A stretch of 64,000 bases of DNA from a virus, in the UHGV virus genome UHGV-0141541. The stretch is one strand, 5' to 3'. The first letter of the stretch is position 1; each line of letters starts with the position of its first letter. The notes beneath the pieces are model-generated. The model worked only from the letters and a program-made list of their open reading frames with translations. It had not been told where the DNA came from and ran no database searches. Below, piece by piece: positions 2,640-41,168 of the stretch. A program made the position numbers and the translations under genes.

Positions 2640-2651
2640 TTCTCGCTCCTA

Positions 2652-2684: not shown

Positions 2685-2712
2685 ATAGATAATTACTTAT
2701 CTACTGCATTGA

Positions 2713-3588: not shown

Positions 3589-3613
3589 CTATCAATTCCC
3601 TTTGATTTAGATG

Positions 3614-4501
3614 TTACTTAAGTCCAATTTTCCCCAGACCGGAGGCCAACTTATCCATAGTCGACTTGTTCTTCGGTTGGGATATTGTGTAGGTCGATTT
3701 GGAATGTGAGCCTACACCCTGCTTGGCTTCGCTACGCATCAATGCGTCAGCTTCCGGATCTGCCCGCACAATGCGTTCAATCGCGGATTCAAACGGCAAC
3801 GGCTTACCTTCACCGTCAACCAGAACAGCTCGTTCTTTGTGACCTGCCGGTTTGTCATAACCCACTACGCTACCGTCTTCACCCACTTCAAAATGAGAAC
3901 CGTAGATCACGCGGGCTTTGGCCGGGGTCATCAGAACTTTGTCACGTAGGAAGAGAGAGTTACTGAAGGAAGCGCCCACGGTCATCTCGACTAATTGAGA
4001 TTTCAGTGATGCGTTTTCACTTTCCAGTGCTGCATAACGTTCGTCACGCTGTGCCAGCTCTGCCTGGTGTGCTTCGATCATCTGTTTTTTAACAGCATCG
4101 AACTCACCACGACGCTCCAGTTCAGCTTGCTCCGCCTCACGACGTGCGTTTTCTGCGGCCTGTTCAGCTTCTAAAAGCTGGCGAGCACGAGCCGGATCGA
4201 TATCACCGTACTGAGCAAGCTGATCGGCCAATGTGCGCTCTTTCTCTTTGCGCTTCATGTTCTCCTTCAGCAGTTCAGCACCAGCTTTCTTGGTTTTACG
4301 AAGTTCGGCCAGTAACTCTTCCTGAGTCATGCCAGCGTATTCGTCATCGCCCTTCGGCTGCTCTTTTTGTTCACCCTGTTTGTCAGGATCTTGTGTACTC
4401 TGCTCATTATCAGCAGCTACACCGCCAGCGCCTCCACGCTCATGCGCTTCAGCGACATCCATCAGACCACGACGGGCCAAAAGCATTTGCCACAGATTCA
4501 T
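3614..4501 (-). CDS. scaffolding protein (putative)
   Basis: 295 aa; long E/A/Q/R-rich predicted coiled coil in the N-terminal half; located between portal and capsid genes. Confidence 0.45.
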   Translation of the reverse strand: MNLWQMLLARRGLMDVAEAHERGGAGGVAADNEQSTQDPDKQGEQKEQPKGDDEYAGMTQEELLAELRKTKKAGAELLKENMKRKEKERTLADQLAQYGDIDPARARQLLEAEQAAENARREAEQAELERRGEFDAVKKQMIEAHQAELAQRDERYAALESENASLKSQLVEMTVGASFSNSLFLRDKVLMTPAKARVIYGSHFEVGEDGSVVGYDKPAGHKERAVLVDGEGKPLPFESAIERIVRADPEADALMRSEAKQGVGSHSKSTYTISQPKNKSTMDKLASGLGKIGLK

Positions 4502-4522
4502 AAAAATTCCTTTTGTTACTTA

Positions 4523-6097: not shown

Positions 6098-6123
6098 TTG
6101 AATAACCTTAGATAACCACTTAC

Positions 6124-7380
6124 CTATCGAGAACCACCAAGAATAACACGGTTTTTGACTGGATACCTACGATGTACTGGATAGCCCAATGCGTCTGCAC
6201 TATGCTCAATGCCACCTGTCTTATCCATATCTCGTGTTCCAGGCTTGTAGATGACTTTTTCCAGTGAATCAATCAAATGCTTGCACTTCGGATCGATATA
6301 CAGCCGGATATCTCCAGATGCGGACATCAGCATTCGGTTAACAGCATTAACACGATCCGCAATTGGCGGGTGCTTTTTCGAATAATCGACACGTAAGAAT
6401 CCCTTCTCTTTGAATATGTCTACGTCAGACTCCCCACGAGCATGTTGGCGATAAGCACCTGCCGGATCTGGAAATACCGTTACCTGTGATTTCCAGCGCC
6501 AGAAGCGTCTCTCAAGCTCATCACAAACTTCTGCCGTGTTAGAGGAAAAGAGCACCAATTCATCAATTGCCCATAGCTCACCATTTGGCTGAGGTTGCAA
6601 AATTACTGAAGACATCGGGTCAATGTTGAAGTCCTGCCCTACCCATATAGGCAACCGAGGGTTGAACTGAAGCGGTTTTACATGCACGTTACGATCGAAC
6701 GGGTAGTAAACGCGCCCGGACATGTTCTCAAAGCTGGCCAGGTACTCCTGAGCGAACGATTTGGGGTCCATATCGTTCTTAGCAGCTTCAATTTCCGCCG
6801 TAGGTACAAACGGAGAATCGGCAGTTACAAACTGCCAGCTCTTCCACTGTCCCTTTCTTTGCAGCTCTACGTTCTGGCCTATAGTCCACAGTTTGTGAAA
6901 TTCCGAGAAGCCTTTTGGCGTACCAATGATCAGTGCACCGCCGCGTGTCGATGAAAGAGTAGGTCGTAACACCTTGTACCAGGTGTCAGCCTTCATATCC
7001 TGAAATTCATCAAGCACTACAAAATGCAACGCTACGCCGCGCAGAGTGTCAGGCTTATCAGCACCTTTGAGGGCGATCTCCGAACCGTTCTTCAACACGA
7101 TTGTCATCGTGGTGTCGTTCTTTTTCCTAACCCACTTACGAGGCAGAACTTCCTGTAGATCGTCCCACAAAATCTGGCGAGCCATCTGGTAAGTAGGAGC
7201 GACATACCAGACCCTTTGCTTTTTTTCCTTTGCCGCCGCACGAATAATAGTGGAGATCGACAACCGGGATTTTCCCCAGCGTCGACCAGCACAAACAACT
7301 TTAAATCGATGCGGAGACTGGAAGACTTTCATCTGTCCAGAATGCAGTTGCACAAGACTGAGCGAGGACGGGATTGCCAT
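6124..7380 (-). CDS. terminase large subunit
   Basis: 418 aa; Walker A-like CAGRRWGKS, Walker B VVLDEF, C-terminal nuclease-like region; precedes portal. Confidence 0.85.
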   Translation of the reverse strand: MAIPSSLSLVQLHSGQMKVFQSPHRFKVVCAGRRWGKSRLSISTIIRAAAKEKKQRVWYVAPTYQMARQILWDDLQEVLPRKWVRKKNDTTMTIVLKNGSEIALKGADKPDTLRGVALHFVVLDEFQDMKADTWYKVLRPTLSSTRGGALIIGTPKGFSEFHKLWTIGQNVELQRKGQWKSWQFVTADSPFVPTAEIEAAKNDMDPKSFAQEYLASFENMSGRVYYPFDRNVHVKPLQFNPRLPIWVGQDFNIDPMSSVILQPQPNGELWAIDELVLFSSNTAEVCDELERRFWRWKSQVTVFPDPAGAYRQHARGESDVDIFKEKGFLRVDYSKKHPPIADRVNAVNRMLMSASGDIRLYIDPKCKHLIDSLEKVIYKPGTRDMDKTGGIEHSADALGYPVHRRYPVKNRVILGGSR

Positions 7381-8012
7381 TATTCGTCCTCCCCTTCACT
7401 TCCATCATCTGTCGCATCAAATTCGCTTAGAGCTTCTTCTTCCAACGTCTCAAGCAATTCGTCATCGATGATTTCAGGCTCGTCGTCTTCCTGACGTAAT
7501 TTCGCCACCTGGGAAGGCGTAAGCTCACCAAATACCAGGTTCGGAATTTCTTCCTCGTCATTTTCCGCATGATCCATGCCCAATGCTTTGGACGAAACTT
7601 CAAAGCATTTTGCAAGGGTATTACTGGCTCTCTGTAAGCTCTTGAGAGAATCCTCAATCGCCCCTAAAGGCTTACCCTCACGTTTGGCCGTAGTGACTTC
7701 GACCATCACCATCTGCCCCAACGCATACGCCCAGCCGTCATAACGTGTACGACGTTCTTCTATCTTTTCCGCACGGGCTTTAGCGCGAAGCTCTGCGTCA
7801 GATTTAAGAGACTCACGAACCATCTTCCCAACAGAGTCCGCGCCTTTCTCTAATCCTCGCTTTTTGAAATGTCTGGAGAGTGTTTCACGACGAATGCCGT
7901 ACTCTTCCTCCAGCTTTGAGAGTGTATATTCGCCTGACGTCCATTTGGCTTCAGCTTCGGCCCACTCCGCTGGTGTCAGGCGAGTTTTTACCTCGTCTTT
8001 TTCGACCGTCAT
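7380..8012 (-). CDS. terminase small subunit (putative)
   Basis: 210 aa, overlaps terL start by 1 nt; N-terminal helix-turn-helix-like region and very acidic C-terminus; RBS GAGGG upstream. Confidence 0.5.
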   Translation of the reverse strand: MTVEKDEVKTRLTPAEWAEAEAKWTSGEYTLSKLEEEYGIRRETLSRHFKKRGLEKGADSVGKMVRESLKSDAELRAKARAEKIEERRTRYDGWAYALGQMVMVEVTTAKREGKPLGAIEDSLKSLQRASNTLAKCFEVSSKALGMDHAENDEEEIPNLVFGELTPSQVAKLRQEDDEPEIIDDELLETLEEEALSEFDATDDGSEGEDE

Positions 8013-8124
8013 AGATCCCTCTAAAACACACAGAGCGCGTCCATGCGCTCTAAAACAACTTGTTTACTGCATCTGCTAACCAACTTGTTTTCTGGGGTGT
8101 TTAATTAGGTCTGGCATGTCTTAC

Positions 8125-8185
8125 GAAGCCTGCTTCCGTATATATTTAATAAGTTACTTATTATTTATATATACAGATGCAGGTC
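8125..8185. promoter_or_regulatory. IR-flanked AT-rich element (copy A), upstream of terminase operon
   Basis: GCCTGCTTC ... GATGCAGGTC arms around the AT-rich core TATATATTTAATAAG...TATTTATATATACAGA; near-identical to 37174-37233. Confidence 0.5.
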
Positions 8186-8207
8186 TTTAAATAAGCTCCC
8201 AGACCGA

Positions 8208-8474
8208 TTACATCACCAGTAACTTCGCTTTGGCTCGACCTAAAGTGGTTAACCCAAGAGTTCGGCGGTGATAGCGATTGTCACTGCGTTGGCGCGTATG
8301 CCCTTTCTCCACCAGCCCCTTTTTTATCAGAGCGCGAATTGAGAACTGGATACTTTGCTTGGTTGTCTTGTACGGCAAAACTTCAAGCAATTCGTCCAGG
8401 TCAAGTAGATGACCTCGCTCATAACCGAGATTGAGCGTTTTGATGATGTCCTTTTGTTTATCGGTTAACGTCAT
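8208..8474 (-). CDS. small basic putative winged-helix DNA-binding protein
   Basis: 88 aa, last gene of the ParB/ATPase/GNAT operon; helix-rich basic sequence; fold assignment is a guess. Confidence 0.4.
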   Translation of the reverse strand: MTLTDKQKDIIKTLNLGYERGHLLDLDELLEVLPYKTTKQSIQFSIRALIKKGLVEKGHTRQRSDNRYHRRTLGLTTLGRAKAKLLVM

Positions 8475-8483
8475 GGCAAATCC

Positions 8484-9374
8484 TTATGCCGGTAAAGCAA
8501 TTTCTAACGGTTTATCCAAAGGTTGTTTGTCGAATGCCAGCAGTGGCAGCGTGTCAGGCAGTCGACGGCCAAAGTCAGGGTTTCGGTACACACCATACAA
8601 CGGAGACGTAAAGCTCAGGTTGTGAATGTCCTTGAGCAGCTTCACAATGCTGGCCTCGTCCACCAGACTGTCGGCAATGTCCTGAATCGTCGTGCCACGA
8701 TTCCGCCCAGCTTTTGCCAGGGAACTGTTCTTGTGGTAGTCCGCCACCAGATCACGCAGTGCACGGCGACGACGAGACTCGCTCATTGCGAACAACTCTT
8801 TGACGATCGCCTCGTTATCACCCGGGTCGGAACGGAAATGGCGCTGGAATACACGCAGTGCACTTTCATAGCTCTTCGGTCGCTCAGGGCGGATGAACTT
8901 AAACCCTGCTTTCATGGCGAAGGGATTGTATTTGCTCATCGAGGACTGGATCTCAATGATTGGCCGGTCATGCATCCTGCTAACTAGGTTAATCATTCGA
9001 TAAGAGACGCCTACGCCACGATACTGAGTATCCACAACTGAGCGACTGATCACCGCAAAGTTGTTATTCACGTACCGACCCCAGTACTGGTTAGCCACGG
9101 TGGTATTAGTGGTTGGTTTCAACTTAGGAAACATGCGGTGGCGAGGTGCCAGCAGTAGTTTCGGGTAAGCCATAACCACGACGCCCACCAGACGGTCATC
9201 AAGTTCGCAGCGATAGTAAGTTGGCGCGAAAGGTTTGCCGTCTGTTTTGTAGTGAAGCGACTTAAGAGCGTGCCAGTCCTCTACAGTTCCCTTTGTGACA
9301 GTCATTCGCTCCAGAAAGTCCAGATGACGCGGAAACTCTTCAGGGCGGTAGCGTTTAATGATGATGTCCGTCAT
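8484..9374 (-). CDS. GNAT-family acetyltransferase domain protein with C-terminal extension
   Basis: 296 aa; GNAT motif A-like VDTQYRGVGVSYRMINLV and motif B-like NPFAMKAGFKFI; 4-nt overlap with upstream ATPase gene. Confidence 0.55.
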   Translation of the reverse strand: MTDIIIKRYRPEEFPRHLDFLERMTVTKGTVEDWHALKSLHYKTDGKPFAPTYYRCELDDRLVGVVVMAYPKLLLAPRHRMFPKLKPTTNTTVANQYWGRYVNNNFAVISRSVVDTQYRGVGVSYRMINLVSRMHDRPIIEIQSSMSKYNPFAMKAGFKFIRPERPKSYESALRVFQRHFRSDPGDNEAIVKELFAMSESRRRRALRDLVADYHKNSSLAKAGRNRGTTIQDIADSLVDEASIVKLLKDIHNLSFTSPLYGVYRNPDFGRRLPDTLPLLAFDKQPLDKPLEIALPA

Positions 9375-10036
9375 AAATGAACCTCATCATGACTACCATT
9401 GTGATATTCCACCTTCACGCGTTCTTTGTAGTGCTTGGTGATCTGCATATCCGGGCGCAGCGCGTTCTTCAGGTCTTCGTGAGTCGTCGCCACCATTACC
9501 GTCGCACCAACCTTTCGAGCGGCACGCTGGAGGTTAGATGCCACAACCTGAGCGGTTACACGGTCTAGAACAGCACCGAACTCGTCAGCAGCCCACACTT
9601 TAGCGCCTGACTCAATCAGTTTGGCAATCTTGAGACGATATTTCTGACCGTCTGACATTTCAGAAGGCTTGCGAACAAACAGATATGCATCGTTCAGACC
9701 AGCCATAGATAACAACCCAAGCGCATCGCTGGTCGTTTTGCCCAACTGATCGATGACGTTAACCTCATTATCGAAGGTAAAATCATCGATGGAGGCTACA
9801 GACAGCCCTTCATCCTTCATCTGTCGTTGCAACTCGCGCAGCACAACGGATTTGCCGGAACCGGATTGGCCGGTGATGTACACCACATCGCCCTGCTTCA
9901 CTTCCAGCTCCAGATTGTCGTAAAGCGTCCACTCTTTTTCGTCCAGGCCAAGCCCGAACGACTCAGCGATTTCCAACGTGCGCGTGGTTTTATTTACGCG
10001 TGTCTGAAACGATACGTTGATGATGTATTTGTTCAT
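9371..10036 (-). CDS. ABC-type ATPase (nucleotide-binding domain only)
   Basis: 221 aa; Walker A GQSGSGKS, ABC signature-like SDGQKYR, Walker B VWAADEFG, H-loop TTHE; no transmembrane partner adjacent. Confidence 0.7.
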   Translation of the reverse strand: MNKYIINVSFQTRVNKTTRTLEIAESFGLGLDEKEWTLYDNLELEVKQGDVVYITGQSGSGKSVVLRELQRQMKDEGLSVASIDDFTFDNEVNVIDQLGKTTSDALGLLSMAGLNDAYLFVRKPSEMSDGQKYRLKIAKLIESGAKVWAADEFGAVLDRVTAQVVASNLQRAARKVGATVMVATTHEDLKNALRPDMQITKHYKERVKVEYHNGSHDEVHL

Positions 10037-10734
10037 GCAGCCATCTCCCCGGAAGAGATCTTCTCCGCATATGCCACAAATGCGTCTACCCCGCTTTCTC
10101 CCGTCATTTCTTCCATGTGGGCAAGCAAATCACCAACAACAATGGCAGAGCCAGCAGGAAGCGTTTTAAAGCCCAATACGTCGACAACACGTACTTCTTC
10201 CGCTGCAACTTCACGACTGATCTCGGTGTGTTCATCCTTCTGTCGTTTAGTTTCTTCGCCAAGATCGATAACTAGCGAGTCGGTGTCCATTTCTTCTGTC
10301 ATGCTGCCAACGAGAACATTCAACTCACGCTCTTCAAAGCCGAAAACCTCGATATCGTCCAGAACAAGCGACTCAAGCTCTTTCTGTAGCTTAATTGCAT
10401 CGTAATCAATGCTGGCAAGTCGGTTATCTTCAAGGCGCTTCGCACGAACCTCGTCATCACTGAGATCATCGCGAACAATAACCGGTACGCGCTCAAGTCC
10501 AGCAAAAATTGCAGCCTCACGGCGGCCGTGGCCAGTAATAATTACGTCGTTCTTATCGACCGTAATTGGCTGGTCAAATCCGCGCTTTTTAATGGCTGCG
10601 GCTAGATCTCGGATCTGCTGTTCATCATGCTTTTTGGCATTCATCTCATAGGGAATAAGATCTGCCGGGTCGCGATATACGATTTCTAACTTTTTGGTCA
10701 TTACATACGCTCCTTGTAGTAGTCGACCAGCCAC
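10033..10734 (-). CDS. ParB N-terminal (ParB/Srx-like nuclease) domain protein
   Basis: 233 aa; ParB box ITGHGRREAA; acidic C-terminal half; real start may be MTKKLEIVY at 10702. Confidence 0.7.
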   Translation of the reverse strand: MAGRLLQGAYVMTKKLEIVYRDPADLIPYEMNAKKHDEQQIRDLAAAIKKRGFDQPITVDKNDVIITGHGRREAAIFAGLERVPVIVRDDLSDDEVRAKRLEDNRLASIDYDAIKLQKELESLVLDDIEVFGFEERELNVLVGSMTEEMDTDSLVIDLGEETKRQKDEHTEISREVAAEEVRVVDVLGFKTLPAGSAIVVGDLLAHMEEMTGESGVDAFVAYAEKISSGEMAA

Positions 10735-11399
10735 ACCAGAGCCTCACCAGCGTTCTCCATTTCATTACCGGTGTTAATAGCCTGCTCTTTGATGATGTTT
10801 TTTATGGTTTCTGCAACACGATCTGACGCATCGAAAGTTACTTTGAAGCGCATGGTCTGATGTTCCGCACCCACACGTTCGGTTTTCTCTCGTTTGTCGG
10901 TATCGACAGGCTCATCACTACCACGAGACAACGCCTCCAGTGCTTCAAGGTCGATTGCCGCCTCTTTTGCTAAAACCATCGAGATTTCGTCGTCATACGG
11001 GGCGATTTCAGACAGCTGATAGTCAAGTTCTGACTGAATTTCTTCAATGAAGCGTTGCAATGCGATTTGGTCGTCTTCACCGTATCGCTCGTTGTCCACC
11101 AGTGACATCTGTTTAGCTACGACATCGCTAATTTTGCCCACAGAAAGCACCGGAACCGTTGAAATTCCTTGCTCAATAGCAGCACGCCAGCGATGTTCGC
11201 CGCCGAGGATTTCAAAAAATCCATCTTCAAGTTCACGAGCCAAAATTGGCTTAAAAAAGCCCAATTTTTCGATAGAACCTTTCAGTTTTTCAAAATTCTG
11301 CGCACCAACCGAATTGGTGTTCCAGGTATTCGGGCGAAGGTTGGCAACATCAACCTGCAAAATCGTGATTTTTACATCCATTTTATTGCTACAATCCAC
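10701..11399 (-). CDS. ParB N-terminal domain protein (second copy)
   Basis: 232 aa; ParB box ILGGEHRWRAA; directly upstream of first ParB-like gene; start may be MDVKITI at 11381. Confidence 0.7.
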   Translation of the reverse strand: MDCSNKMDVKITILQVDVANLRPNTWNTNSVGAQNFEKLKGSIEKLGFFKPILARELEDGFFEILGGEHRWRAAIEQGISTVPVLSVGKISDVVAKQMSLVDNERYGEDDQIALQRFIEEIQSELDYQLSEIAPYDDEISMVLAKEAAIDLEALEALSRGSDEPVDTDKREKTERVGAEHQTMRFKVTFDASDRVAETIKNIIKEQAINTGNEMENAGEALVWLVDYYKERM

Positions 11400-19375: not shown

Positions 19376-19689
19376 TAATAACGCACAGGCGAAAAAGGAT
19401 TTTATTCCGGTGAATGTTGTTTTGGCAGTGAGTTTTCAGGTTCAGTACCGAGTACACTTTTTACATTATTCTGATTTAGTGGCCGAAAGTGGCTGGTGGG
19501 TAGAATAATCCTCTCCCCGGAAACCTACTGAAATCGATTGTGACCCGTTGGCTGTCTGGCACAATTACGCTGTAACTGGGTATTCAGAGGGAGTCCAACG
19601 GTAAGTTAGTCCGCCTGCACGTGAGCGCCTCTCTTCTTCCCGCACATTACAGGTGGGTAGCTGCAACTCTCCCTATCGCTATACCGGTA

Positions 19690-19830
19690 CGCCGCCGTTC
19701 CTGAACCGGCATCGAGCCTTTTCCCGAAACCCACACAGGCAACTCGACCGTTTCCCTGAAAATCCCCAGCCGTTCCCCGAAGGCAACCCAGCCGTTTCTG
19801 TAGCGGGATGCAGCCTTTTCCCTGTATGGA
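19690..19830. repeat. iteron-like direct repeats, consensus RCCGTTTCCCGAA (6 copies)
   Basis: copies at about 19693, 19715, 19745, 19767, 19789 and 19811. Confidence 0.6.
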
Positions 19831-19859
19831 CCGAAGGCTAACCGTAGGGGTGTTACGGG

Positions 19860-20780
19860 GGGATAAAATCAGGAGTTGAATAAATACGAAAAAGGAGGCG
19901 ACACCCCTCCTTCCCTCCCCACTTATACATACCTGGCTTCTTCGCTATACATGTTGTGTTTTCTTCGTGTTTTATCTGTCTCAACCTCTCTATAGGCGTT
20001 AATGCTCACTCCTTCCAGAACGTTCTATACGGCGACTATTTCTGTTGGTGAATTGGGTGTGTTGTTCTCTCTGTCGGTGTATGTGGTTTCGTTCGTTTTG
20101 CGGTGGTTCTTCTATGGGGTGTTCTCGTCGTTTTGGTGATTGTTCTTCTCCGTGTATGGAGTAATGGCAGGTGGGCGATTCCTTTCGTTATTGTGTTTGA
20201 GTTGTTTGTCTGGAGTGCGTGAAGGGCTTTTGTAGTTATTCGTGTATTGGGTAATGGCGTTTCCCGTGATTGTTATGTTTCGTGTCTTTTGGGATTGAGA
20301 GAAACCTTGCGGTTACAGGCTTCGTTGGGGTTTCAGCGGTTCAGGTGTTTCTTCGCTGTTTGGGTAATGGCGTGTCGTGGGTATCGCGCGTATGAATGTT
20401 TTCGGATTGCCTGTGAAAGTTAGGTTGGTTGTCCGGTAGCCTGGGGAGAAGAGGTGGGTCTTTTCGGTAGCCTGCCATAAAGAGGTTGGTTGTTTTGGGT
20501 AATGGCATATGTGTTATTTGGTTGTTTTGTTATGCCTGAAAATAAGTTGTTTATATGGTTGTGTAACGCAACGGGAGCGATTTTGAGCGTGTGTTTTTGT
20601 TGGTAGTGTGTTGAGTCGTCTGTGGTGAAATTTGGACGCTGTGGCGCTATCTGCTGCGTAGAATTACGGGTATAAGAAGTGATGTGTGATAACGTCAATT
20701 TTTTAGACCAAATCGGGAGAAAGCGTTGATGTTTCGTTGATCTGTTATTTAGTTGTTTTCTTATTGGTATAAACAACCAT
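19860..20780. other. GT-rich noncoding tract with internal repeats (no credible ORF)
   Basis: strong G+T excess on the given strand; repeated GGGTAATGGC (about 4 copies) and a ~60-bp unit shared with 17259-17320. Confidence 0.5.
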
Positions 20781-20895
20781 AACCTATTGATATTTAATGA
20801 TGTGATTGCTGGTATGGGAGGGTAGTAGTGGCGATCAACGGGTTCTTATAGAAAAGAATCAAATTGTGACCGCCATTATCAATAAGTTGCAACCG

Positions 20896-21501
20896 TTAGT
20901 TGTTCAGATAAACATTTGGAACACGGACGTAGAACTTACTGTTACCGGTAAGTTCCAGAGTAATGTTAATGTCATTACCATTGTCTAGTGTAGCCGTCGC
21001 TCTATAGAACTTATCAGTTACCTTTTCGTCAATATTAACCTTGATGCATTTCGCCGCAGTAGAACCATTATGCTCTTTCAGAATAGTTGTCACGACAGGA
21101 CATGCGGCTTCCTCAATGACGCCATCTTCCTGTTTCGGTATTACAATGAAGAATACGTAAGCCAGCAAGGTAACGACTATAATAAATGGCAGTCTACTGC
21201 TCTTTGTTATAGTCGCACGCTTCCATAGGTAGATTGGTATGAAAACTATTCCCCATAAAATAGCAGGTGGCTCATAGCCGGATTCCGAAATCGCCATTCT
21301 GTCAGCCACTAATAATCCGATGGCAGCTAAACTTCCAATTAATACAGCATAATTTGCATACTCTTCGTTCGGAATGCCGAAGCAAATTGGAATAAAAGCT
21401 AAAATCCACGCATAAGTGTTATTCAAAGGTTTTTTTTGTTGGTTATTGGTTTCCATCACATCCATCTCATCACTTAAATTACTTGTATATATTATCAACA
21501 T
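20896..21501 (-). CDS. multi-pass membrane protein of unknown function
   Basis: 201 aa; several hydrophobic segments; lies in an AT-rich stretch; start uncertain (M1 or MDVMET). Confidence 0.5.
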   Translation of the reverse strand: MLIIYTSNLSDEMDVMETNNQQKKPLNNTYAWILAFIPICFGIPNEEYANYAVLIGSLAAIGLLVADRMAISESGYEPPAILWGIVFIPIYLWKRATITKSSRLPFIIVVTLLAYVFFIVIPKQEDGVIEEAACPVVTTILKEHNGSTAAKCIKVNIDEKVTDKFYRATATLDNGNDINITLELTGNSKFYVRVPNVYLNN

Positions 21502-21799: not shown

Positions 21800-22099
21800 T
21801 TACCATTGCCAGCACTCAAGCCCTTCAACGACCGGTGCGCCACAATCAAAATGTACAGAGTCAAAGCCTACATCAAGTACTTTCTGAATGTTCGCAATCG
21901 CGCCCTCGGATATACCGTATCGACGCAACTCATCTTTCCAGTCATCGTCCTGTAACCCGGCGTGGACAATGCAACCGTACTCAATTTGTGAAACCCAATC
22001 CAGCTCATTGCTTGCGATCATGAATCGGCAAGCATCTTCCTCTGATGTATGAGATGAGCTGATCAATGCCACCTGGTAGGCTTGGGTAATGTTCAACAT
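21800..22099 (-). CDS. hypothetical protein
   Basis: ORF track 21800-22108; start moved to MLNITQ (RBS GGAG); motif family 1 copy at 22113-22145. Confidence 0.45.
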   Translation of the reverse strand: MLNITQAYQVALISSSHTSEEDACRFMIASNELDWVSQIEYGCIVHAGLQDDDWKDELRRYGISEGAIANIQKVLDVGFDSVHFDCGAPVVEGLECWQW

Positions 22100-22210
22100 T
22101 TCAACCACTCCAAAACAAGTTGTTTTCTTATGTGGTTTATTATCTCCATCAACAAAAGGCAGAAAACAAATTGTTTTAGGTACTGTGTAAATCAGAAGGG
22201 ATTGTGTCTA

Positions 22211-22240
22211 TATGAAAATGCCCGGCGTGTTGCCGGGCAT
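22211..22240 (-). terminator. metG intrinsic terminator
   Basis: hairpin ATGCCCGGC-AACACG-CCGGGCAT followed by TTTTCAT on the minus strand, about 20 bp after the metG stop. Confidence 0.6.
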
Positions 22241-22260
22241 TGCGAAGAGAGGTTGTTTAA

Positions 22261-24294
22261 TTACTTAACCTGGTGGCCAGGTTTAGCACCAGCATCCGGG
22301 CTTAACAGGAAGATATCTTTCCCGCCGGGGCCAGCAGCCATCACCATGCCTTCAGAGATACCGAAGCGCATTTTACGCGGAGCCAGGTTAGCCACCATAA
22401 TGGTGTGACGACCAATCAGTGCCTGTGGATCTGGATAAGCGGAACGGATGCCTGAGAAGACATTACGCTTTTCACCACCGAGATCCAGCGTCAGGCGAAG
22501 CAGTTTGTCAGAACCTTCGACAAACTCCGCGTTTTCAATCAGCGCCACACGCAGGTCAACTTTGGCGAAGTCGTCAAAGGTGATGGTTTCCTGAATCGGG
22601 TCGTCAGCCAGTGGGCCAGTTACCGGTGCAGCTGTGGCTTTCACTTCTTCTTTGGATGCTTCCACCAGTGCTTCCACCTGTTTCATATCGATACGGTTAT
22701 ACAGTGCCTTGAACGGATTCACTTTATGGCCCAGCAGCGGTTGCTGGATACCATCCCAAGTCAGTTCTGTATTCAGGAATGCTTCTGCACGTTCAGTCAG
22801 TTTCGGCAGTACCGGTTTCAGGTACGTCATCAGCACGCGGAACAGGTTAATGCCCATAGAGCAAATCGCCTGCAGATCGGCATCGCGTCCTTCCTGCTTC
22901 GCCACCACCCACGGAGCCTGTTCATCGACATAGCGGTTAGCCAGATCAGCCAGCGCCATGATTTCACGAATCGCTTTACCAAATTCGCGGCTTTCCCATG
23001 CTTCACCAATCACTTCAGCGGCATCAGTAAAGGTTTTGTACAGTTGCGGGTCAGCCAGTTCGCCTGCCAGCACACCGTCAAAACGCTTATTGATAAAGCC
23101 CGCGTTACGGGACGCCAGATTCACCACTTTGTTCACGATATCGGCATTCACGCGCTGAACGAAATCCTCCAGGTTGAGATCGATATCATCAATGCGCGAA
23201 GAGAGTTTCGCAGTGTAGTAGTAACGCAGGCTGTCAGCGTCAAAATGATTCAGCCAGGTGCTGGCTTTAATAAAGGTGCCGCGAGACTTGGACATCTTCG
23301 CACCGTTCACCGTCACATAGCCATGAACAAACAGGTTGGTCGGCTTGCGGAAGTTGCTGCCTTCCAGCATGGCAGGCCAGAACAGGCTGTGGAAGTAAAC
23401 GATATCTTTACCGATGAAGTGGTACAGCTCGGCGGTGGAGTCTTTCTTCCAGTATTCGTCGAAGCTGGTAGTGTCGCCGCGTTTGTCGCACAGATTCTTG
23501 AAGGAACCCATGTAGCCAATCGGTGCGTCCAGCCAGACGTAGAAGTATTTGCCCGGTGCGTTCGGAATTTCAAAACCGAAGTAAGGTGCGTCACGGGAGA
23601 TATCCCACTGTTGCAGGCCAGATTCAAACCACTCCTGCATTTTGTTTGCCACCTGCTCCTGCAACGCACCGCTGCGGGTCCATGCCTGCAACATTTCGCT
23701 GAAAGAAGGCAGATCAAAGAAGAAGTGTTCGGAATCACGCATTACCGGTGTAGCGCCAGAAACCACTGATTTCGGCTCGATCAGTTCCGTCGGGCTGTAG
23801 GTCGCGCCGCAGACTTCACAGTTATCGCCGTATTGATCCGGCGCTTTACATTTCGGGCATGTGCCTTTTACAAAACGGTCCGGCAGGAACATGCCTTTTT
23901 CCGGGTCGTACAGCTGAGAGATGGTGCGGTTTTTAATAAAACCGTTCTCTTTCAGGCGAGTATAGATAAGCTCGGACAACTGACGGTTCTCTTCGCTGTG
24001 CGTCGAGTGATAGTTGTCATAGCTGATGTTAAAGCCTGCGAAATCAGTCTGATGTTCCTGACTCATTTCGCCAATCATCTGTTCCGGTGTGATACCAAGC
24101 TGCTGTGCTTTCAGCATGATTGGCGTACCGTGGGCATCGTCGGCACAGATGAAATTAACCTCGTGGCCGCGCATTCGCTGGTAACGAACCCAGACATCAG
24201 CCTGGATGTGCTCCAGCATATGGCCGAGGTGGATTGAGCCGTTAGCGTACGGCAGCGCGCACGTCACCAGAATTTTCTTCGCGACTTGGGTCAT
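22261..24294 (-). CDS. metG: methionine--tRNA ligase, host-type
   Basis: 677 aa starting [26 protein letters not shown] (HIGH motif), KMSKS present, C-terminal tRNA-binding domain; the 720-aa ORF-track start is an upstream extension. Confidence 0.95.
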
Positions 24295-24451
24295 AGTAGG
24301 CATTACTTCTTTGTAGTGAAAAGGGGCTTGATAGTAACAAAATGGCCTTATGTCTGCCATGTGATAACAGCATTTCTCATAAATGATTAAATGTCGTAGC
24401 TGGAGTACACTACAAGGCGACAATTGCGCAAATTAAAATAAAGGAGACGGG

Positions 24452-25552
24452 ATGAGCGAGTCCAAATCGCCGGATGCCCTGAGAGCAATGGTAGCCGGTA
24501 CGCTGGCTAATTTTCAGCACCCAACCCTGAAACACAACCTGACTACGCTTAAAGCGTTACACCATGTTGCGTTGATGGATGACACACTGCATGTCGAACT
24601 AATCATGCCTTTCGTGTGGAATAAGCCTTTTGAAGACCTGAAAGAGCAATGTAGTGGTGATCTGCTCCGTATCACTGGCGCAAAGGCTATTGACTGGAAG
24701 CTGTCGTACAACATTGCCACGCTTAAGCGCGTCAAAAACCAACCAGGCATTAATGGCGTTAAGAACATTATCGCCGTCAGCTCAGGCAAGGGCGGCGTGG
24801 GTAAATCCTCCACGGCGGTAAACCTGGCACTGGCGTTGGCTGCTGAAGGTGCGAAAGTTGGTATTTTGGATGCCGATATCTATGGTCCATCAATTCCAAC
24901 CATGCTGGGCGCGGAAAACCAACGTCCAACCTCACCTGACGGTACTCACATGGCACCTATCATGTCTCATGGCCTGGCAACCAACTCTATTGGTTATCTG
25001 GTCACCGACGACAATGCAATGGTGTGGCGTGGACCGATGGCCAGCAAGGCGCTGATGCAGATGTTGCAGGAAACTCTATGGCCTGATCTGGACTATCTCG
25101 TTCTCGATATGCCGCCGGGCACTGGTGATATTCAGTTGACGCTGGCGCAGAACATTCCTGTAACTGGTGCGGTTGTGGTAACTACGCCGCAAGACATCGC
25201 GCTGATCGATGCGAAGAAAGGCATTGTGATGTTCGAAAAAGTCGAAGTGCCGGTACTGGGTATCGTTGAAAACATGAGTGTGCATATTTGCAGTAACTGC
25301 GGTCATCACGAGCCAATTTTTGGCACCGGTGGCGCACAGAAACTGGCCGAGAAATACAACACGCAGTTGTTAGGCCAAATGCCACTTCATATCTCTCTTC
25401 GTGAAGATCTGGATAACGGAACACCAACCGTTATTAGTCGTCCAGATAGCGAATTTACAGCTATTTATCGTGACCTCGCAGATCGCGTTGCTGCCCAAAT
25501 GTATTGGCAAGGTGAAGTAATACCTGGCGAAATCGCATTCCGCGCAGTGTGA
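24452..25552 (+). CDS. apbC: iron-sulfur cluster carrier protein ApbC/Mrp, host-type
   Basis: 366 aa; deviant Walker A SSGKGGVGKSS, CxxC motif (CSNCGH); divergent from metG with 157-bp intergenic region, the arrangement I recall for E. coli. Confidence 0.93.
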   Translation: MSESKSPDALRAMVAGTLANFQHPTLKHNLTTLKALHHVALMDDTLHVELIMPFVWNKPFEDLKEQCSGDLLRITGAKAIDWKLSYNIATLKRVKNQPGINGVKNIIAVSSGKGGVGKSSTAVNLALALAAEGAKVGILDADIYGPSIPTMLGAENQRPTSPDGTHMAPIMSHGLATNSIGYLVTDDNAMVWRGPMASKALMQMLQETLWPDLDYLVLDMPPGTGDIQLTLAQNIPVTGAVVVTTPQDIALIDAKKGIVMFEKVEVPVLGIVENMSVHICSNCGHHEPIFGTGGAQKLAEKYNTQLLGQMPLHISLREDLDNGTPTVISRPDSEFTAIYRDLADRVAAQMYWQGEVIPGEIAFRAV

Positions 25553-25553
25553 T

Positions 25554-25580
25554 AAAAAGGCGGTGCATTGCACCGCCTAA
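25554..25580. terminator. bidirectional hairpin terminator between apbC and the UmuD'-like gene
   Basis: AGGCGGTGCA-TT-GCACCGCCT flanked by A-run and T-rich sequence. Confidence 0.55.
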
Positions 25581-25589
25581 TCAGTTCTC

Positions 25590-25979
25590 CTACATCACGG
25601 GACAATCATCAAACTCGCCACTTCTTGCGTCGTTGATAATGTGAGTGATCACACCAAACACGGCATTGCTGCCCGTGCATCCATCGTCATCCTTTGGCAA
25701 TGCTTCCTTCTTACCGGTTCTTAAATCCTCCAGATGCTGACGTGGGTACTTCCGGTATCTTTTTACGCGATATTCCCCATCCAGAGCGCATACAAGCAGA
25801 GAACCATCAACCGGGGTAAGTGAGGAATCGACCACCAGCAATGCACCCTGTAATATTCCCTCACGATGATGACTATCAGCTGCCCTCATGAAGTAGGTCG
25901 CTGAAGGATGTCTAATTATCTGCTGATCAAGAGAAATACGGCTCTCAGCATAATCCGCCGCAGGAGAAGGGAAGCCCAT
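25590..25979 (-). CDS. UmuD'-like protein (P1 HumD-like), lacking the N-terminal cleavable arm
   Basis: 129 aa starting MGFPSPAADY, matching E. coli UmuD from Gly25 (the UmuD' start); ADSH in place of GDSM. Confidence 0.75.
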   Translation of the reverse strand: MGFPSPAADYAESRISLDQQIIRHPSATYFMRAADSHHREGILQGALLVVDSSLTPVDGSLLVCALDGEYRVKRYRKYPRQHLEDLRTGKKEALPKDDDGCTGSNAVFGVITHIINDARSGEFDDCPVM

Positions 25980-26152
25980 AGCGTTTTCACCTCAAAATAC
26001 TGTTTATCCATACAGTATACATTAAAGAAGCACCTTTGGTGCAAACGCGTTATGTACATCAACCACCGCTGATGACTTTGTGCGCTTTGCTACTATTCAT
26101 CACCGCTGGATCAGCGTAACCTCGTTACTAATCAATTAATAAGGAATTAGCC

Positions 26153-26629
26153 ATGCCTGCCCGCATTCCTCTCGATCCTGCATTGCCCAAAAATTTTGAC
26201 TGCACTCCTAACGAGAAACGCTCCAAAGCCCAGCTGGACGCCTGGTGGAACCATCCCTATGGAGTTACAGAACCTGACGGGAAAATTGTTGTTTATTGTC
26301 TGAATGGTGGGGCGTGGGACCGTCCATCCATGCTTTGTTTGGCAGATAACTATGATGAAGCCTGTGAACTTGCCGAAAGACAGCAGGCCAGCTGGGTAAA
26401 AACACGGTCTGAACCGACATTCATGTTTTCAAAAGAACCGCCATTTATACTGGCAAGGATGCCGCAGCGACCGGATCATCAACAAGAAATTGTTGCTGAA
26501 TTTTCCTCAAGGGATGAGATGAATCTCTTCTCATTAAGGCAGGAAGAAAGGGATCACGTCGAAGTGTCTCCAACTCTTGATCACAACCGGATGAACCTGG
26601 CCAACTCGCCTGGTACAGCAAAGAATTAG
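26153..26629 (+). CDS. hypothetical protein
   Basis: 158 aa ORF, no motif recognised. Confidence 0.5.
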   Translation: MPARIPLDPALPKNFDCTPNEKRSKAQLDAWWNHPYGVTEPDGKIVVYCLNGGAWDRPSMLCLADNYDEACELAERQQASWVKTRSEPTFMFSKEPPFILARMPQRPDHQQEIVAEFSSRDEMNLFSLRQEERDHVEVSPTLDHNRMNLANSPGTAKN

Positions 26630-26798
26630 AGATGTCTATTGCCCGACTTGAAAACGAAAAAGCCGCTATCCAAGCCCAGCATGAAGGGGTAGTGACCGGG
26701 TAGCTACGAGAACTGCCAACTATTCGGAAAAACGTACGCTAATTAGCGTACGTTTTCATTCCATTGGGCTTCAGACGCCTTCACCGTCTTGTTCTTTG

Positions 26799-27728
26799 CT
26801 ACGGATATTCGTAATGCATGTTTTCATCCGGATAAGGGTTGTCAAACGCATTTGCAGAAACACGGATCGTCAAATTATCCGATAATCCTTCGATCATCTC
26901 CAAAATCTCAGGCGGACAACTTTTGTCAAAGGTCAACACAAAGTCATAGATCAAACCGTCATCACTACTGTTTTCCTGTGTGTCCCATTCCAGCAATTCA
27001 AGATCTTCGTCTGTTATGCCAAGCTCCGCTGCCAGTCTGCTCTGAGAAGGTTTGCCATACTTTAGCTCCGGGTCAACCCTGTCGTCATTGACGCAGCCTC
27101 CAGCTTCAAGCTCGAAATCGTAAAAACCGCGCTTGCCAGCCATGCGGGGCAATATCACCTTCACAACTATATCAAGGGTGTCACCACAGAACGGCCTATC
27201 GTCCAGAGTCTCGCCCTTGTACTGGGTTTTGGCAATAGCCACCAATTTGTCACCACGATCCTCGATTTGCACATCGTCATAATAAGCATCGAAAAATTCC
27301 GCATTGGTTTCAGCCATCAAACCGGAAAGCTGGTCATCTATAAGAGATTGGCAATCGGGTAGTAAGACTTCGACAATATAGTTTTCAAGTGTGTCATGGA
27401 TCCAGACATTTCCACCACATAGCCCTTCACTGGTAAGCATGTCTGATAGAAGCCTGGCGAGGTCAATTGACTGGGTAAGGTCATTTGGCAAACCGTTGAG
27501 TTTCGAGCGTCTGTCATTCATCAACGGTATATCAGGAATGAAGATATATGCCTCTTCGAGCTGAACCAGCGGGTAGGTCTTCTCGGCCATGAGTGCCGCA
27601 TGGCTCTTGTAACCGAAAAATGCTGCAACCAGCTCTCTTGCATGTGAAGCTTTTAGTTTTTCAGTGGATTGGGAAACATGATTTTGACGTAGGAAATCTG
27701 CGCAAAGTTTTGAGAGATCGGTACTCAT
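26799..27728 (-). CDS. highly acidic hypothetical protein
   Basis: 309 aa with a large excess of D/E over K/R; no motif recognised. Confidence 0.55.
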   Translation of the reverse strand: MSTDLSKLCADFLRQNHVSQSTEKLKASHARELVAAFFGYKSHAALMAEKTYPLVQLEEAYIFIPDIPLMNDRRSKLNGLPNDLTQSIDLARLLSDMLTSEGLCGGNVWIHDTLENYIVEVLLPDCQSLIDDQLSGLMAETNAEFFDAYYDDVQIEDRGDKLVAIAKTQYKGETLDDRPFCGDTLDIVVKVILPRMAGKRGFYDFELEAGGCVNDDRVDPELKYGKPSQSRLAAELGITDEDLELLEWDTQENSSDDGLIYDFVLTFDKSCPPEILEMIEGLSDNLTIRVSANAFDNPYPDENMHYEYP

Positions 27729-28222
27729 AGTAGTGATCCTGTCTTAACAATGCTGGACTTTAAAAGTAGTGGTAAGTGTTTAAGTCACTACGCTTGCCAG
27801 CATGGTTAATAAAGATCAACTGTCATTGGCAGGTAGTTCGACTTGCTGTCTTTTAGGTCACTTACAGCCTTGGCAATCAGCTCCGATACCTAAGATACCA
27901 GAATGGCCGATTTTAGCAAGACGAATAAATGATGCTTTCAGCTAGCCATGTCCTAGCATGGCCAGATTTTGGGTGTTCGTATTTATTTCATTGACCAGCA
28001 TTATAATCGTTAATCTGGTTACTCGGAGACGGGCTGCAACATCGAGCGCAGCGCGTGAAGGTGGAAGGATAAAAGTTGGCAGTTATCTCAGCTACCCGGT
28101 CACTCTCCCATGAAGTAGTTCTGAACCGGATTAGAGAAATGCAAAACGATAACAGAGGCTAAATCGAGGTAGAAAACACATTATTTAAGGCCACTAATTG
28201 TGGCCTTAAAGGGGAGAGATGC

Positions 28223-28747
28223 TTATTGGCTATGGCTAAAAATCAAATGAGACACTTCATGTGGTTGTAGCTCGTCAAGATCCGGTGCCACAAAACCTTT
28301 TCCGAAAGACTTCACAAGTGATTCACCAGCCGCATCCTTGTCACCTATTACACGAAAGTCATACGGCAGCATTGCAAGTTGACGACGTAATCCAGCTGAG
28401 AAAGTCGAACCTAACAGCGCCCATGAATTTCCGCCCGCGTTGTGCACTGCTGCACTTTTAAAAATCGACTCAGTTATCCATATTGGGCCATCTTTTAAAG
28501 GAAGATAGGTTCCCCAAAGTAACTGTCTGCCGTGTGATCGCGTGAAATACCGGGCCATCTTCGGATTGCTATGCTGCTTAGGAGCGCCTGGTCTGTATGT
28601 CTGATACCCAGCCAACATCCCATCAAACCTGTATAGAGGGAATGTAACAACTCCTTCGCTTTCATCGATCCACTGTCTATATGGGTGTATATCATGGCGG
28701 TAGTTACGAGTCAGCAAATGAGCTTCCAGCTTTCCAAATTTGGTCAT
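28223..28747 (-). CDS. putative Toprim-domain protein (primase-like catalytic core?)
   Basis: ORF track 28223-28786; start moved to MTKFGK (RBS GAGGGA); conserved Glu in ITES plus DxD-type VIGDKDAAGE resembles a Toprim signature; weak. Confidence 0.35.
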   Translation of the reverse strand: MTKFGKLEAHLLTRNYRHDIHPYRQWIDESEGVVTFPLYRFDGMLAGYQTYRPGAPKQHSNPKMARYFTRSHGRQLLWGTYLPLKDGPIWITESIFKSAAVHNAGGNSWALLGSTFSAGLRRQLAMLPYDFRVIGDKDAAGESLVKSFGKGFVAPDLDELQPHEVSHLIFSHSQ

Positions 28748-28760
28748 AACTTCGCATCCC

Positions 28761-29615
28761 TCATAACACTTCCCATTTATCACCATATTTCTCCATAGCT
28801 CTTAGCCAGTAAACATGGCCACTAGGCATAGTGATGTGAGGCTCACCAAACTCTTCTCCATGTACATCAAAGATGTCCCCAACAGAAAATTGGGGGATTT
28901 CTGTTCCGTTTTCACCTATATGTGTAATTCGTATACGTTTCGGTTGGGATTGTCCACCTTTGAGCGAGTTGTTCACTGCTCTGGCAATTTTCTCCCGCAA
29001 TTGCTGCGTTCCGTGATACGTAACCGCAATATCCCTCAACTCGTTCACCAGTTCTCGAATCTGGTGATCTTTAAGCTCATTATTTGGGTGATTGGTAACA
29101 ACTCTGGTTAATTCACCCTTGTCTTTTGCTCTTACGTATGCAGCTCTTGTGCATTCGACCCATGTATTACCGCCTACATTAACTTCGTAGATTAGGCTGG
29201 ACTTATCTGTCAATTCGGAACAAATACGGGCCGTGGTCTGGCAACTAGAGCATTCGCAGTTATCGCGGAAACCGTGGTCTACTGGCTTCGGTTTCACATC
29301 ATCAACTTTTTCTACCCTATCGGAATTTAAATACTTCGAAGCCTTGCTATGCCAATCGCTGGTTTTAGGATCTTGTCCATCCATCAAACGCCAGGCTTCA
29401 GCGATTAACTCATAACTAGTGACTGTAGCTTCCTGCGCATCACCAATAAGTCGTGTAATCTCTCTTTCAAGCCGACCGCCTAGCTCTGTTTTAGTGCAAT
29501 GTTCTGACCAATCGCCAGCCTCAAGCAGCGCGAGAATGCTTAAAATATCGTCCAATAGATCAGTGGTATTATCGACTTCCTTCTGAAACTCACCGGCTAC
29601 TGATTTATGCATCAT
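28761..29615 (-). CDS. hypothetical protein with Cys-rich segment
   Basis: 284 aa; CECSSCQ...C cluster; overlaps the downstream Toprim-like ORF by 26 nt in another frame. Confidence 0.5.
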   Translation of the reverse strand: MMHKSVAGEFQKEVDNTTDLLDDILSILALLEAGDWSEHCTKTELGGRLEREITRLIGDAQEATVTSYELIAEAWRLMDGQDPKTSDWHSKASKYLNSDRVEKVDDVKPKPVDHGFRDNCECSSCQTTARICSELTDKSSLIYEVNVGGNTWVECTRAAYVRAKDKGELTRVVTNHPNNELKDHQIRELVNELRDIAVTYHGTQQLREKIARAVNNSLKGGQSQPKRIRITHIGENGTEIPQFSVGDIFDVHGEEFGEPHITMPSGHVYWLRAMEKYGDKWEVL

Positions 29616-30330: not shown

Positions 30331-30468
30331 GTGTTTTTCTCTTCTTTGCTGTTACATAAGCACTACCAAGTGCTGGTTTATTTTCACAAATAAGAAAAGG
30401 TAGAAAACAATTTATTTAAGGCCACAACTTATGGCCTTTATTTATTCATGCCGAAGGATTTGTAGCGT

Positions 30469-40047: not shown

Positions 40048-40692
40048 CTAATGAACGGTCACTCGGCCACAGAACCGGTTTTCTATCTTTTCTACAGCGT
40101 TATCTAGCATTCTCATCACTGATCTGGCTCTTGCTTCAACCGTGCGATACCGGTTGGAAACGACGAAGGTTTGCAGATCTCCCCTTTGCGGATGCAGGTG
40201 AATTTTTGTCAGTTCCCCGCACATCAACGCATCAATACGAGCGACATACAGACGGTCTAATGATGCTCGTTGTGATCGCAAGTAATCTCGCTCTGAGAGA
40301 GCGACTCCCGGGCGTAAGCCAGCAATGGCGTTAAAGTTTGAAATAGCAGTTTTGTGGCAAAACTTTTCGATATCGAGGGCTAACTCAATACACCGATCTT
40401 CATTTGTATGGCCGACCAAATCCAACGTGTAGGCCATAACATCAGCAGGTGTGCGATCGATAACAAAGCCTTCAACACCACGCGTAAGTAGCTCTATATG
40501 CTTTGCTATTTCCATTTGAATCTGAAGCCGCTCATATAGAGGCATAGAATCACCTACTCGAACACCGAGGCGGCTCATCAAACTTCCGACACCAGCATCC
40601 ACGTAAGGGATTCCGTAATGTTTGTCGATATATTTAGCCAGGGTTGTTTTCCCACTGCCCTGAGCACCAGTGATCCCAATCCGGTAATCCAT
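40048..40692 (-). CDS. P-loop kinase, possible dNMP kinase
   Basis: 214 aa; Walker A GITGAQGSGKTT at N-terminus; in nucleotide-metabolism block next to DHFR/ThyA; substrate unverified. Confidence 0.55.
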   Translation of the reverse strand: MDYRIGITGAQGSGKTTLAKYIDKHYGIPYVDAGVGSLMSRLGVRVGDSMPLYERLQIQMEIAKHIELLTRGVEGFVIDRTPADVMAYTLDLVGHTNEDRCIELALDIEKFCHKTAISNFNAIAGLRPGVALSERDYLRSQRASLDRLYVARIDALMCGELTKIHLHPQRGDLQTFVVSNRYRTVEARARSVMRMLDNAVEKIENRFCGRVTVH

Positions 40693-41168
40693 TACGACCT
40701 TCTGTATACGATCTGCGAAAAGCCAGGCTCTTCCTCGCTGGCTCGTTGGGTATAAGCTGTTTCAACAGGCACAAAGCCTAAGTTACGCATCATGCTTGCC
40801 GGGAAGAATGCATCGGCGTTTGGTACATCAACGCCGATGTGGGAGAGCCAAATCTCTTCAACATGCGGCATGAATAGCGAGTAAATTTGTTCCCCGCCAA
40901 TCACCCACACAGGCTCTGGTAATCGCAACACATCATCCATACCAGCAGGGTAGAATCCATTTGGTACAAAGCCATGAGAGCGCGTCAAAACGAGGTTATG
41001 ACGCTCTGGAAGAGGGCGTTTGAGACTTTCCATCGTTTTACGCCCCATAACGACAGTGGCGTTTTTGGTGAGTCTCTTAAATAGCTTCAGATCGGTAGAA
41101 CAACGCCAGGGGAGTTCATTCGCTATGCCGATCTCATAGTTACGGCCAACAGCAGCGATCATCTTCAT
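40692..41168 (-). CDS. folA: dihydrofolate reductase
   Basis: 158 aa; N-terminal IAAVGRNYEIG..LPW, VVMGRKT, VIGG matches DHFR family pattern. Confidence 0.8.
   Translation of the reverse strand: MKMIAAVGRNYEIGIANELPWRCSTDLKLFKRLTKNATVVMGRKTMESLKRPLPERHNLVLTRSHGFVPNGFYPAGMDDVLRLPEPVWVIGGEQIYSLFMPHVEEIWLSHIGVDVPNADAFFPASMMRNLGFVPVETAYTQRASEEEPGFSQIVYRRS

Follow-up and report, generated by a model that had tools for sequence, protein, structure and literature searches.

How did metG and apbC (mrp), two core genes of enterobacterial chromosomes, come to lie side by side within a phage backbone, and what might they do there? The question is raised by UHGV virus genome UHGV-0141541, represented here by a stretch of 64,000 nucleotides (nt; hereafter the window) that matches the circular plasmid pS2-S1K81-2 of Escherichia coli strain S2 (NZ_CP107145.1, 111,932 bp) with 100% identity over 14 kb and corresponds to positions 58731–111932, followed by 1–10798, of that record. 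The initial annotation of the window read the locus either as a capture of host genes, possibly through recombination at a short repeated motif, or as an assembly chimera. The explanation that we consider probable, taken as a whole, is that the locus is an old cargo cassette carrying a second, intact metG-apbC pair, of ancient origin, in which metG has since been exchanged with the host copy, for which a role in persistence is suggested by published work, and in which apbC behaves as a moron.

A metG-apbC cassette on a phage-plasmid

The cassette and its right-hand neighbor comprise the following features, in window coordinates:

22181–22260, minus strand: terminator end of the cassette behind metG, with a stem at 22217–22241 followed by UUUU and no homologue in 80 enterobacterial chromosomes
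22261–24294, minus strand: metG, an intact open reading frame (ORF) for a full-length class I methionyl-tRNA synthetase (MetRS) of 677 amino acids
24295–24451, no strand: putative divergent promoter region of 157 bp between metG and apbC
24452–25552, plus strand: apbC (mrp), an intact ORF for an Fe-S cluster carrier P-loop ATPase of 366 amino acids
25558–25578, no strand: hairpin between apbC and humD, with a U-tract on the minus strand only
25590–25979, minus strand: humD, encoding a UmuD-like S24 peptidase, whose stop codon forms the right cassette boundary

The divergent arrangement of two intact genes around a 157-bp spacer is as the initial annotation had described it. The MetRS displays the HLGH (residue 22) and KMSKS (residue 333) motifs, zinc knuckles CPKC at 146 and CEVC at 159, and the Pfam domains tRNA-synt_1g (E = 5e-166), Anticodon_3 and a C-terminal tRNA_bind, that is, all the features of a bacterial dimeric-type class I methionyl-tRNA synthetase. 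ApbC combines a deviant Walker A P-loop (GKGGVGKS, at 112) with a C-terminal CxxC (CSNC, at 280) and matches PF10609 (E = 2e-102), as expected of the ApbC/Mrp/NBP35 group. The terminators had been described as native-looking, and strong hairpins are indeed present at both ends, although neither shows homology to the chromosomal terminators, which themselves differ in every genus. The hairpin at 22217–22241 (-19.1 kcal/mol, z = -6.1) is followed by UUUU on the metG strand, while that at 25558–25578 appears from its sequence to suit the termination of humD transcription more than that of apbC, because its U-tract sits only on the minus (humD) strand. A simple sigma-70 scan of the 157-bp intergenic region found no promoter. 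Local GC content is 0.50–0.52 in the cassette versus 0.41–0.46 in its flanks. The cassette is a self-contained cargo unit of 3.4 kb with its own putative promoter region and hairpins. Its limits can be drawn from relatives that do not carry metG (pTB212 and the a7 plasmid), which align with the window up to 22176 and again from 25590; these alignment breaks place the cassette at 22178/22181–25589, with the humD stop codon at its right end. The left homology break, at 22176–22180, falls where the motif copy noted in the initial annotation ends (22180), in agreement with the left boundary given there.

The replicon that carries the cassette encodes a RepB replication initiator, ParB, tail fiber and tail tip proteins, Cor and four tRNAs, together with host-like paralogues of replication and metabolism genes: dnaE, recA, nrdAB, thyA (thymidylate synthase), dihydrofolate reductase (DHFR), glutaredoxin and ligase. 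Plasmid replication and partition genes thus share one circular replicon of the ~100–115 kb class with siphovirus structural genes, and the backbone is syntenic with that of Salmonella phage SSU5, at 67–83% nucleotide identity in the blocks that flank the variable region. Because of this RepB/ParB/tail/Cor gene set and the synteny with SSU5, the element can be classified as an SSU5-supergroup phage-plasmid of E. coli, similar to pSLy3 and pWPMR2. Close relatives have been deposited as phages, such as PhiR41_1 (host MG1655) and Cyrano, for which virions were documented by quantitative PCR and electron microscopy.

The cassette is found at 95–100% identity in 208 PLSDB plasmids from Escherichia, Shigella and E. 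albertii, in four phage records (Cyrano, which is pLF82; PhiR41_1; and two CMS-2020a records) and in 32 IMG/VR contigs, all with identical metG-spacer-apbC spacing. Among 5,426 complete E. coli genomes it occupies 224 plasmid places, so that about 4% of them carry a second metG-apbC on a transmissible phage-plasmid. All 5,426 genomes keep the chromosomal copy (5,430 chromosomal places), and transfer of an essential gene followed by addiction, with loss of the chromosomal copy, was considered as a candidate and finds no support. The core chromosomal nature of the two genes and the elevated GC content of the cassette would both be compatible with chromosomal reads mis-joined into a plasmid assembly. 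The same cassette and both its junctions recur, however, in some 200 independent complete plasmids, which come from several hosts and countries, as well as in the four phages and the 32 contigs, and its genes are just 82–94% identical to any E. coli chromosome, so that it cannot consist of the host's own reads; the assembly chimera envisaged in the initial annotation is accordingly left with next to no weight. The lesson for annotation is that such a pair of "core" genes on a phage-plasmid represents genuine cargo here, and no contamination.

Discordant ancestry of metG and apbC

Gene pair and orientation match those of chromosomal metG-mrp(apbC), which in K-12 (b2114/b2113) has the same divergent arrangement and shares a conserved stretch of 47 nt upstream of metG. 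The likeness stops there: the K-12 intergenic region measures 131 bp versus 157 bp, the terminators are non-homologous, apbC is just 82% identical, and the chromosomal flanking genes yehE and yehF are absent beside the window cassette. The best chromosomal matches over the cassette reach 88–90% in E. coli, ~85% in Citrobacter and ~83% in Salmonella, with no sampled chromosome above ~90%, and homology to chromosomes ends at the two stop codons. Within the spacer, likeness to E. coli is confined to the 47 nt that adjoin metG, and the full length aligns only with Citrobacter (~78%).

The two genes differ markedly in their distance from K-12. For metG, identity is 93.9% at the nucleotide and 98.7% at the amino acid level, with 0.30 synonymous (dS) and 0.0067 non-synonymous (dN) substitutions per site (dN/dS 0.02), a dS comparable to that between K-12 and Escherichia sp. 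E1V33 (0.28). For apbC, nucleotide identity falls to 82.0%, with a dS of 1.58 and a dN of 0.032, and the divergence exceeds that between E. coli and Salmonella (dN 0.025). Plasmid copies show only 2 fixed differences from E. coli chromosomal alleles in metG (29 copies) versus 120 in apbC (40 copies), and 311 versus 132 polymorphic sites among themselves. In neighbor-joining trees, K-12 metG joins the plasmid alleles and leaves E1V33 outside (89% bootstrap), while the plasmid apbC copies make up a clade on a long branch (100%), apart from K-12 and E1V33, which group together (100%). The comparison of GC content at third codon positions (GC3), by which the initial annotation had proposed to examine the two genes against their surroundings, separates them as well: metG retains a chromosome-like value (0.61 versus 0.62–0.63 in Escherichia chromosomes), whereas apbC (0.51–0.53 versus 0.60–0.62) is shifted toward the backbone (~0.40–0.59), which argues for amelioration of apbC and not of metG. 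These patterns indicate that metG and apbC have discordant histories.

The substitution patterns show both genes to be under strong purifying selection. Pairwise comparison of the plasmid copies gives a median dN/dS of 0.012 for metG and of 0.013 for apbC, and an intact ORF is retained by 29 of 30 metG and by 40 of 40 apbC copies. Pairs of apbC sequences within the plasmid clade reach a dS of 0.33 with no more than 0–3 non-synonymous changes, and the changes relative to K-12 lie in the N- and C-terminal parts of ApbC, leaving residues 87–295, the ATPase core, invariant in every plasmid copy. Most differences between plasmid and K-12 MetRS revert to the enterobacterial consensus, and essentially S151A alone is lineage-specific. 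The spacer is conserved at 99.4–100% in 31 of the 32 IMG/VR loci (those holding it in full) and at 94.9–100% in the plasmid and phage records sampled. In plasmid pAMPD01 (L093, NZ_CP058309.1), metG is annotated as several small ORFs, which points to a pseudogene or else to an assembly rich in frameshifts; no other disrupted copy was seen among the annotated plasmid records.

Recent capture from the host can be rejected on the divergence of the two genes, because their dS amounts to 0.30 (metG) and 1.6 (apbC). The presence of diverged metG and apbC at the same site in relatives argues instead for an old, element-adapted acquisition, so that the initial annotation was right about the kind of event, a capture of host-type genes, while its age proves to be of another order. 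The cassette would have been acquired anciently from an Escherichia-related chromosome and then inherited with the plasmid lineage. Following this acquisition, apbC and the promoter side would have diverged independently, drifting toward the lower GC content of the plasmid under purifying selection, while metG would have been kept Escherichia-like, most likely because it recurrently underwent homologous exchange with the chromosomal copy of its host. Tracts of metG identical to K-12 are seen in pYLPM7a and pZ1323 (P = 0.0005). A scan of GTDB species for donors returned two Escherichia-type loci only, one of them a mislabeled E. coli identical to K-12, and no chromosome near the plasmid apbC; a search of 5.8 billion proteins was uninformative in this respect, its 90%-identity clusters merging plasmid and chromosomal ApbC. 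If part of the variability of metG stems from recombination with the host copy, this is of consequence wherever metG is used for typing or in association studies. A broader reading, which we advance tentatively, sees the cassette as a composite put together over evolutionary time, with apbC and its promoter side as the ancient part, and takes the phage-plasmid as a shuttle of essential-translation-gene alleles among Escherichia and Shigella, with metG continually overwritten by, and possibly donating to, the chromosome, and with apbC (or der, in sister plasmids described below) as independently selected partners instead of passengers. For plasmid-type tracts in chromosomes, 419 records that match at 90–95% are candidates.

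Expression and proposed function

That a phage-plasmid family carries an extra metG, and that this gene is linked to antibiotic survival, is already known, because it has been the subject of published work on pWPMR2 (PMC12452169; bioRxiv 10.1101/2025.09.12.675607). Multidrug-resistant S. sonnei lineages are associated, in the work as cited, with highly variable phage-plasmid metG copies, and expression of phage-plasmid metG is described there as giving rise to a subpopulation predisposed to third-generation cephalosporin resistance (Tam et al., medRxiv, doi 10.1101/2024.10.27.24316207, cited in PMC12452169). As far as these citing accounts go, plasmid metG is thus tied to antibiotic survival and to Shigella outbreak lineages. 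The S. sonnei plasmid pWPMR2 has been placed in the SSU5 supergroup, and pWPMR2-like elements are reported in E. coli clonal complexes (CC) CC131, CC23 and CC73 (bioRxiv 10.1101/2025.09.12.675607); it belongs to the same plasmid family as the window and appears to have the same auxiliary metG. Plasmid NZ_CP099775.1 of S. sonnei, a member of the pWPMR2 family, is 98.9% identical to the window over the cassette and encodes an identical ApbC. The gene apbC has likewise been noted on pSLy3-group phage-plasmids of E. coli sequence type ST648 (PMC12429562). The primary pWPMR2 paper aside, neither the discordant ancestry of metG and apbC nor the lysogenic expression of apbC was found in the literature, and the separate ancestry of apbC and the cargo slot are not discussed in that on pWPMR2.

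Expression data are available for Cyrano/pLF82 of adherent-invasive E. coli LF82, which carries the cassette at the same site with 97.5% identity, a fully identical (100%) intergenic region and 100% amino acid identity in ApbC. In LF82 RNA-seq, Cyrano apbC (CYRAN_99) is listed as a moron expressed in lysogeny at 9x the prophage background (PMC9928086, Table 1 and S1 Table); the gene bears the annotation "MinD septum site-determining protein" in that work, and MetRS is absent from the text discussion (PMC9928086). The cassette resembles phage morons in being a self-contained unit between two phage transcription units, in the alternative cargo found in its slot and in the lysogenic expression of apbC. 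Unlike usual morons, its cargo in the window is an essential housekeeping synthetase that is near-identical to the host protein and appears to recombine with the host copy.

Mutations or knock-down of metG raise persistence and alter homocysteine editing (PMC11004401). In line with such reports, expression of the auxiliary metG would perturb Met-tRNA charging and translation homeostasis, and a tolerant or persister subpopulation surviving antibiotics would result. The plasmid MetRS retains the dimerization domain and shares 98.7% identity with the host enzyme. Its effect on Met-tRNA charging and homocysteine editing would therefore probably come from a change in dosage or from mixed dimers, and changes in phage-plasmid copy number would modulate the effect. 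In turn, apbC would be a co-selected moron expressed in lysogeny.

Several observations tell against this account. Given that the MetRS differs at essentially one lineage-specific residue (S151A), it is hard to see why a near-wild-type copy should perturb translation. In LF82, the plasmid metG (CYRAN_100) is weakly transcribed in LB medium (~16 fragments per kilobase per million, ~1.6x background; PMC9928086), which lends no obvious support to a dosage-based mechanism under those conditions. As regards exchange with the chromosome, the metG of the window shows no significant K-12-identical tract (P = 0.30), and a donor outside the chromosomes sampled, for instance in E. albertii, E. fergusonii or the cryptic Escherichia clades, might account for some of the metG pattern. 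Lastly, the equation with pWPMR2 is drawn from the 98.9% identity to an S. sonnei plasmid of the same family.

The main rival to a role in host persistence is that the pair serves the element itself, as an auxiliary translation and Fe-S module for its lytic growth or maintenance, for instance by charging initiator tRNA or by maturing Fe-S or radical enzymes of the element. The many host-like paralogues of the element (dnaE to ligase, and four tRNAs), the addition of der beside apbC in a sister plasmid and the purifying selection acting on both genes are all in keeping with such a module. The published link between metG and a host phenotype and the moron-like expression of apbC in lysogeny point the other way, and we judge this rival unlikely. 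A neutral hitchhiker, that is, functionless DNA brought in by illegitimate recombination and not yet lost, might be suspected from the fragmented metG annotation of pAMPD01 and from the other cargo that fills the slot in some family members. It is nevertheless very unlikely in view of the low median dN/dS of metG, the dS of up to 0.33 in apbC with 0–3 non-synonymous changes, the nearly universal integrity of the copies, the almost invariant intergenic region and the transcription of apbC in lysogeny.

Carrying an additional aminoacyl-tRNA synthetase on a plasmid is a known route to resistance, and the plasmid-borne ileS2/mupA synthetases, which confer mupirocin resistance, are strongly diverged and inhibitor-insensitive. 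By analogy, the second MetRS could be imagined as an inhibitor-resistant spare. Both cases involve a second synthetase on a mobile element, but the window MetRS is 98.7% identical to that of K-12, with S151A as its only lineage-specific residue and its catalytic motifs unchanged, which makes an inhibitor-resistant spare highly improbable. Beyond metG, for which a persistence role remains the favored proposal, the discordant history of apbC suggests that this neglected second gene merits a functional test of its own.

The cargo slot, its neighbors and the dispersed palindrome

The cassette lies in the early/accessory region, bordered on one side by the promoter of a DUF5983 gene, which is itself flanked by operator-like copies, and on the other by the 3' end of humD. 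The following further features bear on its surroundings:

22112–22128, minus strand: operator-like palindrome AAAACAAgTTGTTTT, 13 nt upstream of the DUF5983 start codon and directly behind a GATAAT -10 box
22158–22180, minus strand: motif noted in the initial annotation, GGCAGAAAACAAATTGTTTTAGG, an upstream palindrome that overlaps the -35 of the DUF5983 promoter; the backbone ends with it, at the edge of the cassette
26028–28965, no strand: separate variable block with a P1-like lxr (26153–26629) and a 309-amino-acid ORF, absent from Cyrano/pLF82 and S. sonnei p38
28168–28190, minus strand: second motif copy, after the terminator hairpin of a toprim-domain gene, with a near-identical copy at 30399–30421

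The initial annotation had proposed that a segment of roughly 6 kb (22181–28167), bracketed by a short direct repeat, forms one unit. A recent capture of this block from the current host, through recombination between the motif copies at 22158 and 28168, would account for the left cassette end abutting one copy and for the related copy, present as annotated at 28168–28190, 6 kb to the right. Yet the two copies agree at no more than 20 of 23 positions, others lie at 17951 and 30399, and the palindrome underlying the motif, AAACAAnTTGTTT, is found 15 times in the window versus 0.57 expected (at 8053, 8078, 17193, 17957, 18859, 19343, 20540, 22113, 22164, 30405, 33313, 34027, 34756, 44975 and 56414). 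With 15 copies of a dispersed palindrome, finding the motif on both sides of any block is unremarkable and no mark of a mobile unit. Cyrano/pLF82 and S. sonnei p38 share window positions 21800–26027 and lack 26028–28965, and this variable block is an independent indel outside the metG-apbC cassette. The 6-kb segment is hence not one unit, given the right end at the humD stop codon (25589, not 28167), the DUF4145 gene that relatives carry in place of the cassette, and the indel at 26028–28965. Comparison of the cassette ends and junction zones revealed no shared direct or inverted repeat of at least 8 nt, and none of the signs of transposon or insertion sequence (IS) capture sought at the cassette ends (terminal inverted repeats, target-site duplication, IS remnants) was found; IS1 and IS3 were seen only in the a7 plasmid variant. 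Together with the divergence from chromosomes, which rules out recency, these results render a recent 6-kb capture, and with it recombination at the repeated motif, scarcely credible.

What the motif does can be conjectured from its context. Most AAACAAnTTGTTT copies stand right after a GATAAT -10-like box, 10–25 nt ahead of the start codon of a minus-strand early gene. The motif at 22158–22180 is kept in SSU5 (L083, 8951–9018, 82%), where it is conserved even when neighboring genes fail to align, and in the relatives that do not carry metG. It would therefore be an operator inside early promoters, such as the promoter/operator of the DUF5983 gene. C1 operators are dispersed across the genome of phage P1, and by comparison the AAACAAnTTGTTT set looks like operators of the element's repressor. 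K-12 sequence beyond the 3' end of metG seemed to match the motif, but the resemblance disappeared in multiple alignment.

The slot seems to carry alternative cargo in different family members. In pTB212 (L087, 3745–4488) and in the a7 plasmid (L085), a DUF4145 gene fills the place of metG-apbC, disrupted by IS elements in the latter, which also carries type I restriction-modification genes beyond humD. In the sister plasmid pZ1323HEC0016-2 (NZ_CP148383.1; L094, 8628–10100), a full-length der follows directly after apbC and replaces humD. This plasmid der, encoding a ribosome-biogenesis GTPase, is 91.4% identical to the chromosomal der, occupies 36 plasmid places in complete E. coli genomes and constitutes a second diverged essential translation-related gene in the cassette region. 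The slot may thus alternate between housekeeping-type and defense-type cargo. On the right-hand side, humD adjoins apbC directly in 31 of 32 IMG/VR loci. The humD-lxr pair of the window (25590–26629) is 91–92% identical to humD-lxr of P1, a member of another phage-plasmid family, and among the plasmids and contigs examined lxr is present in this plasmid and in one IMG/VR contig only; the window therefore differs from the S. sonnei and LF82 plasmids, which do not have the lxr block after the cassette. In S. sonnei plasmid NZ_CP099775.1 (L084, 15114–17507), ISEcp1-blaCTX-M-15 lies ~2.3 kb to the right of humD, in the variable region of the cassette.

Rfam and tRNA scans of the 64-kb window returned no match. 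A stretch of ~1.5 kb at 19400–20900 holds no annotated coding sequence in the RefSeq record and displays a strong compositional strand bias, with a GC skew of +0.36 and an AT skew of -0.32, as well as several short internal repeats; with no Rfam match, it is kept at 97% in Cyrano and at ~68% in SSU5. The DHFR gene of the element (40692–41168, minus strand) is annotated by RefSeq as trimethoprim-resistant DfrA51.

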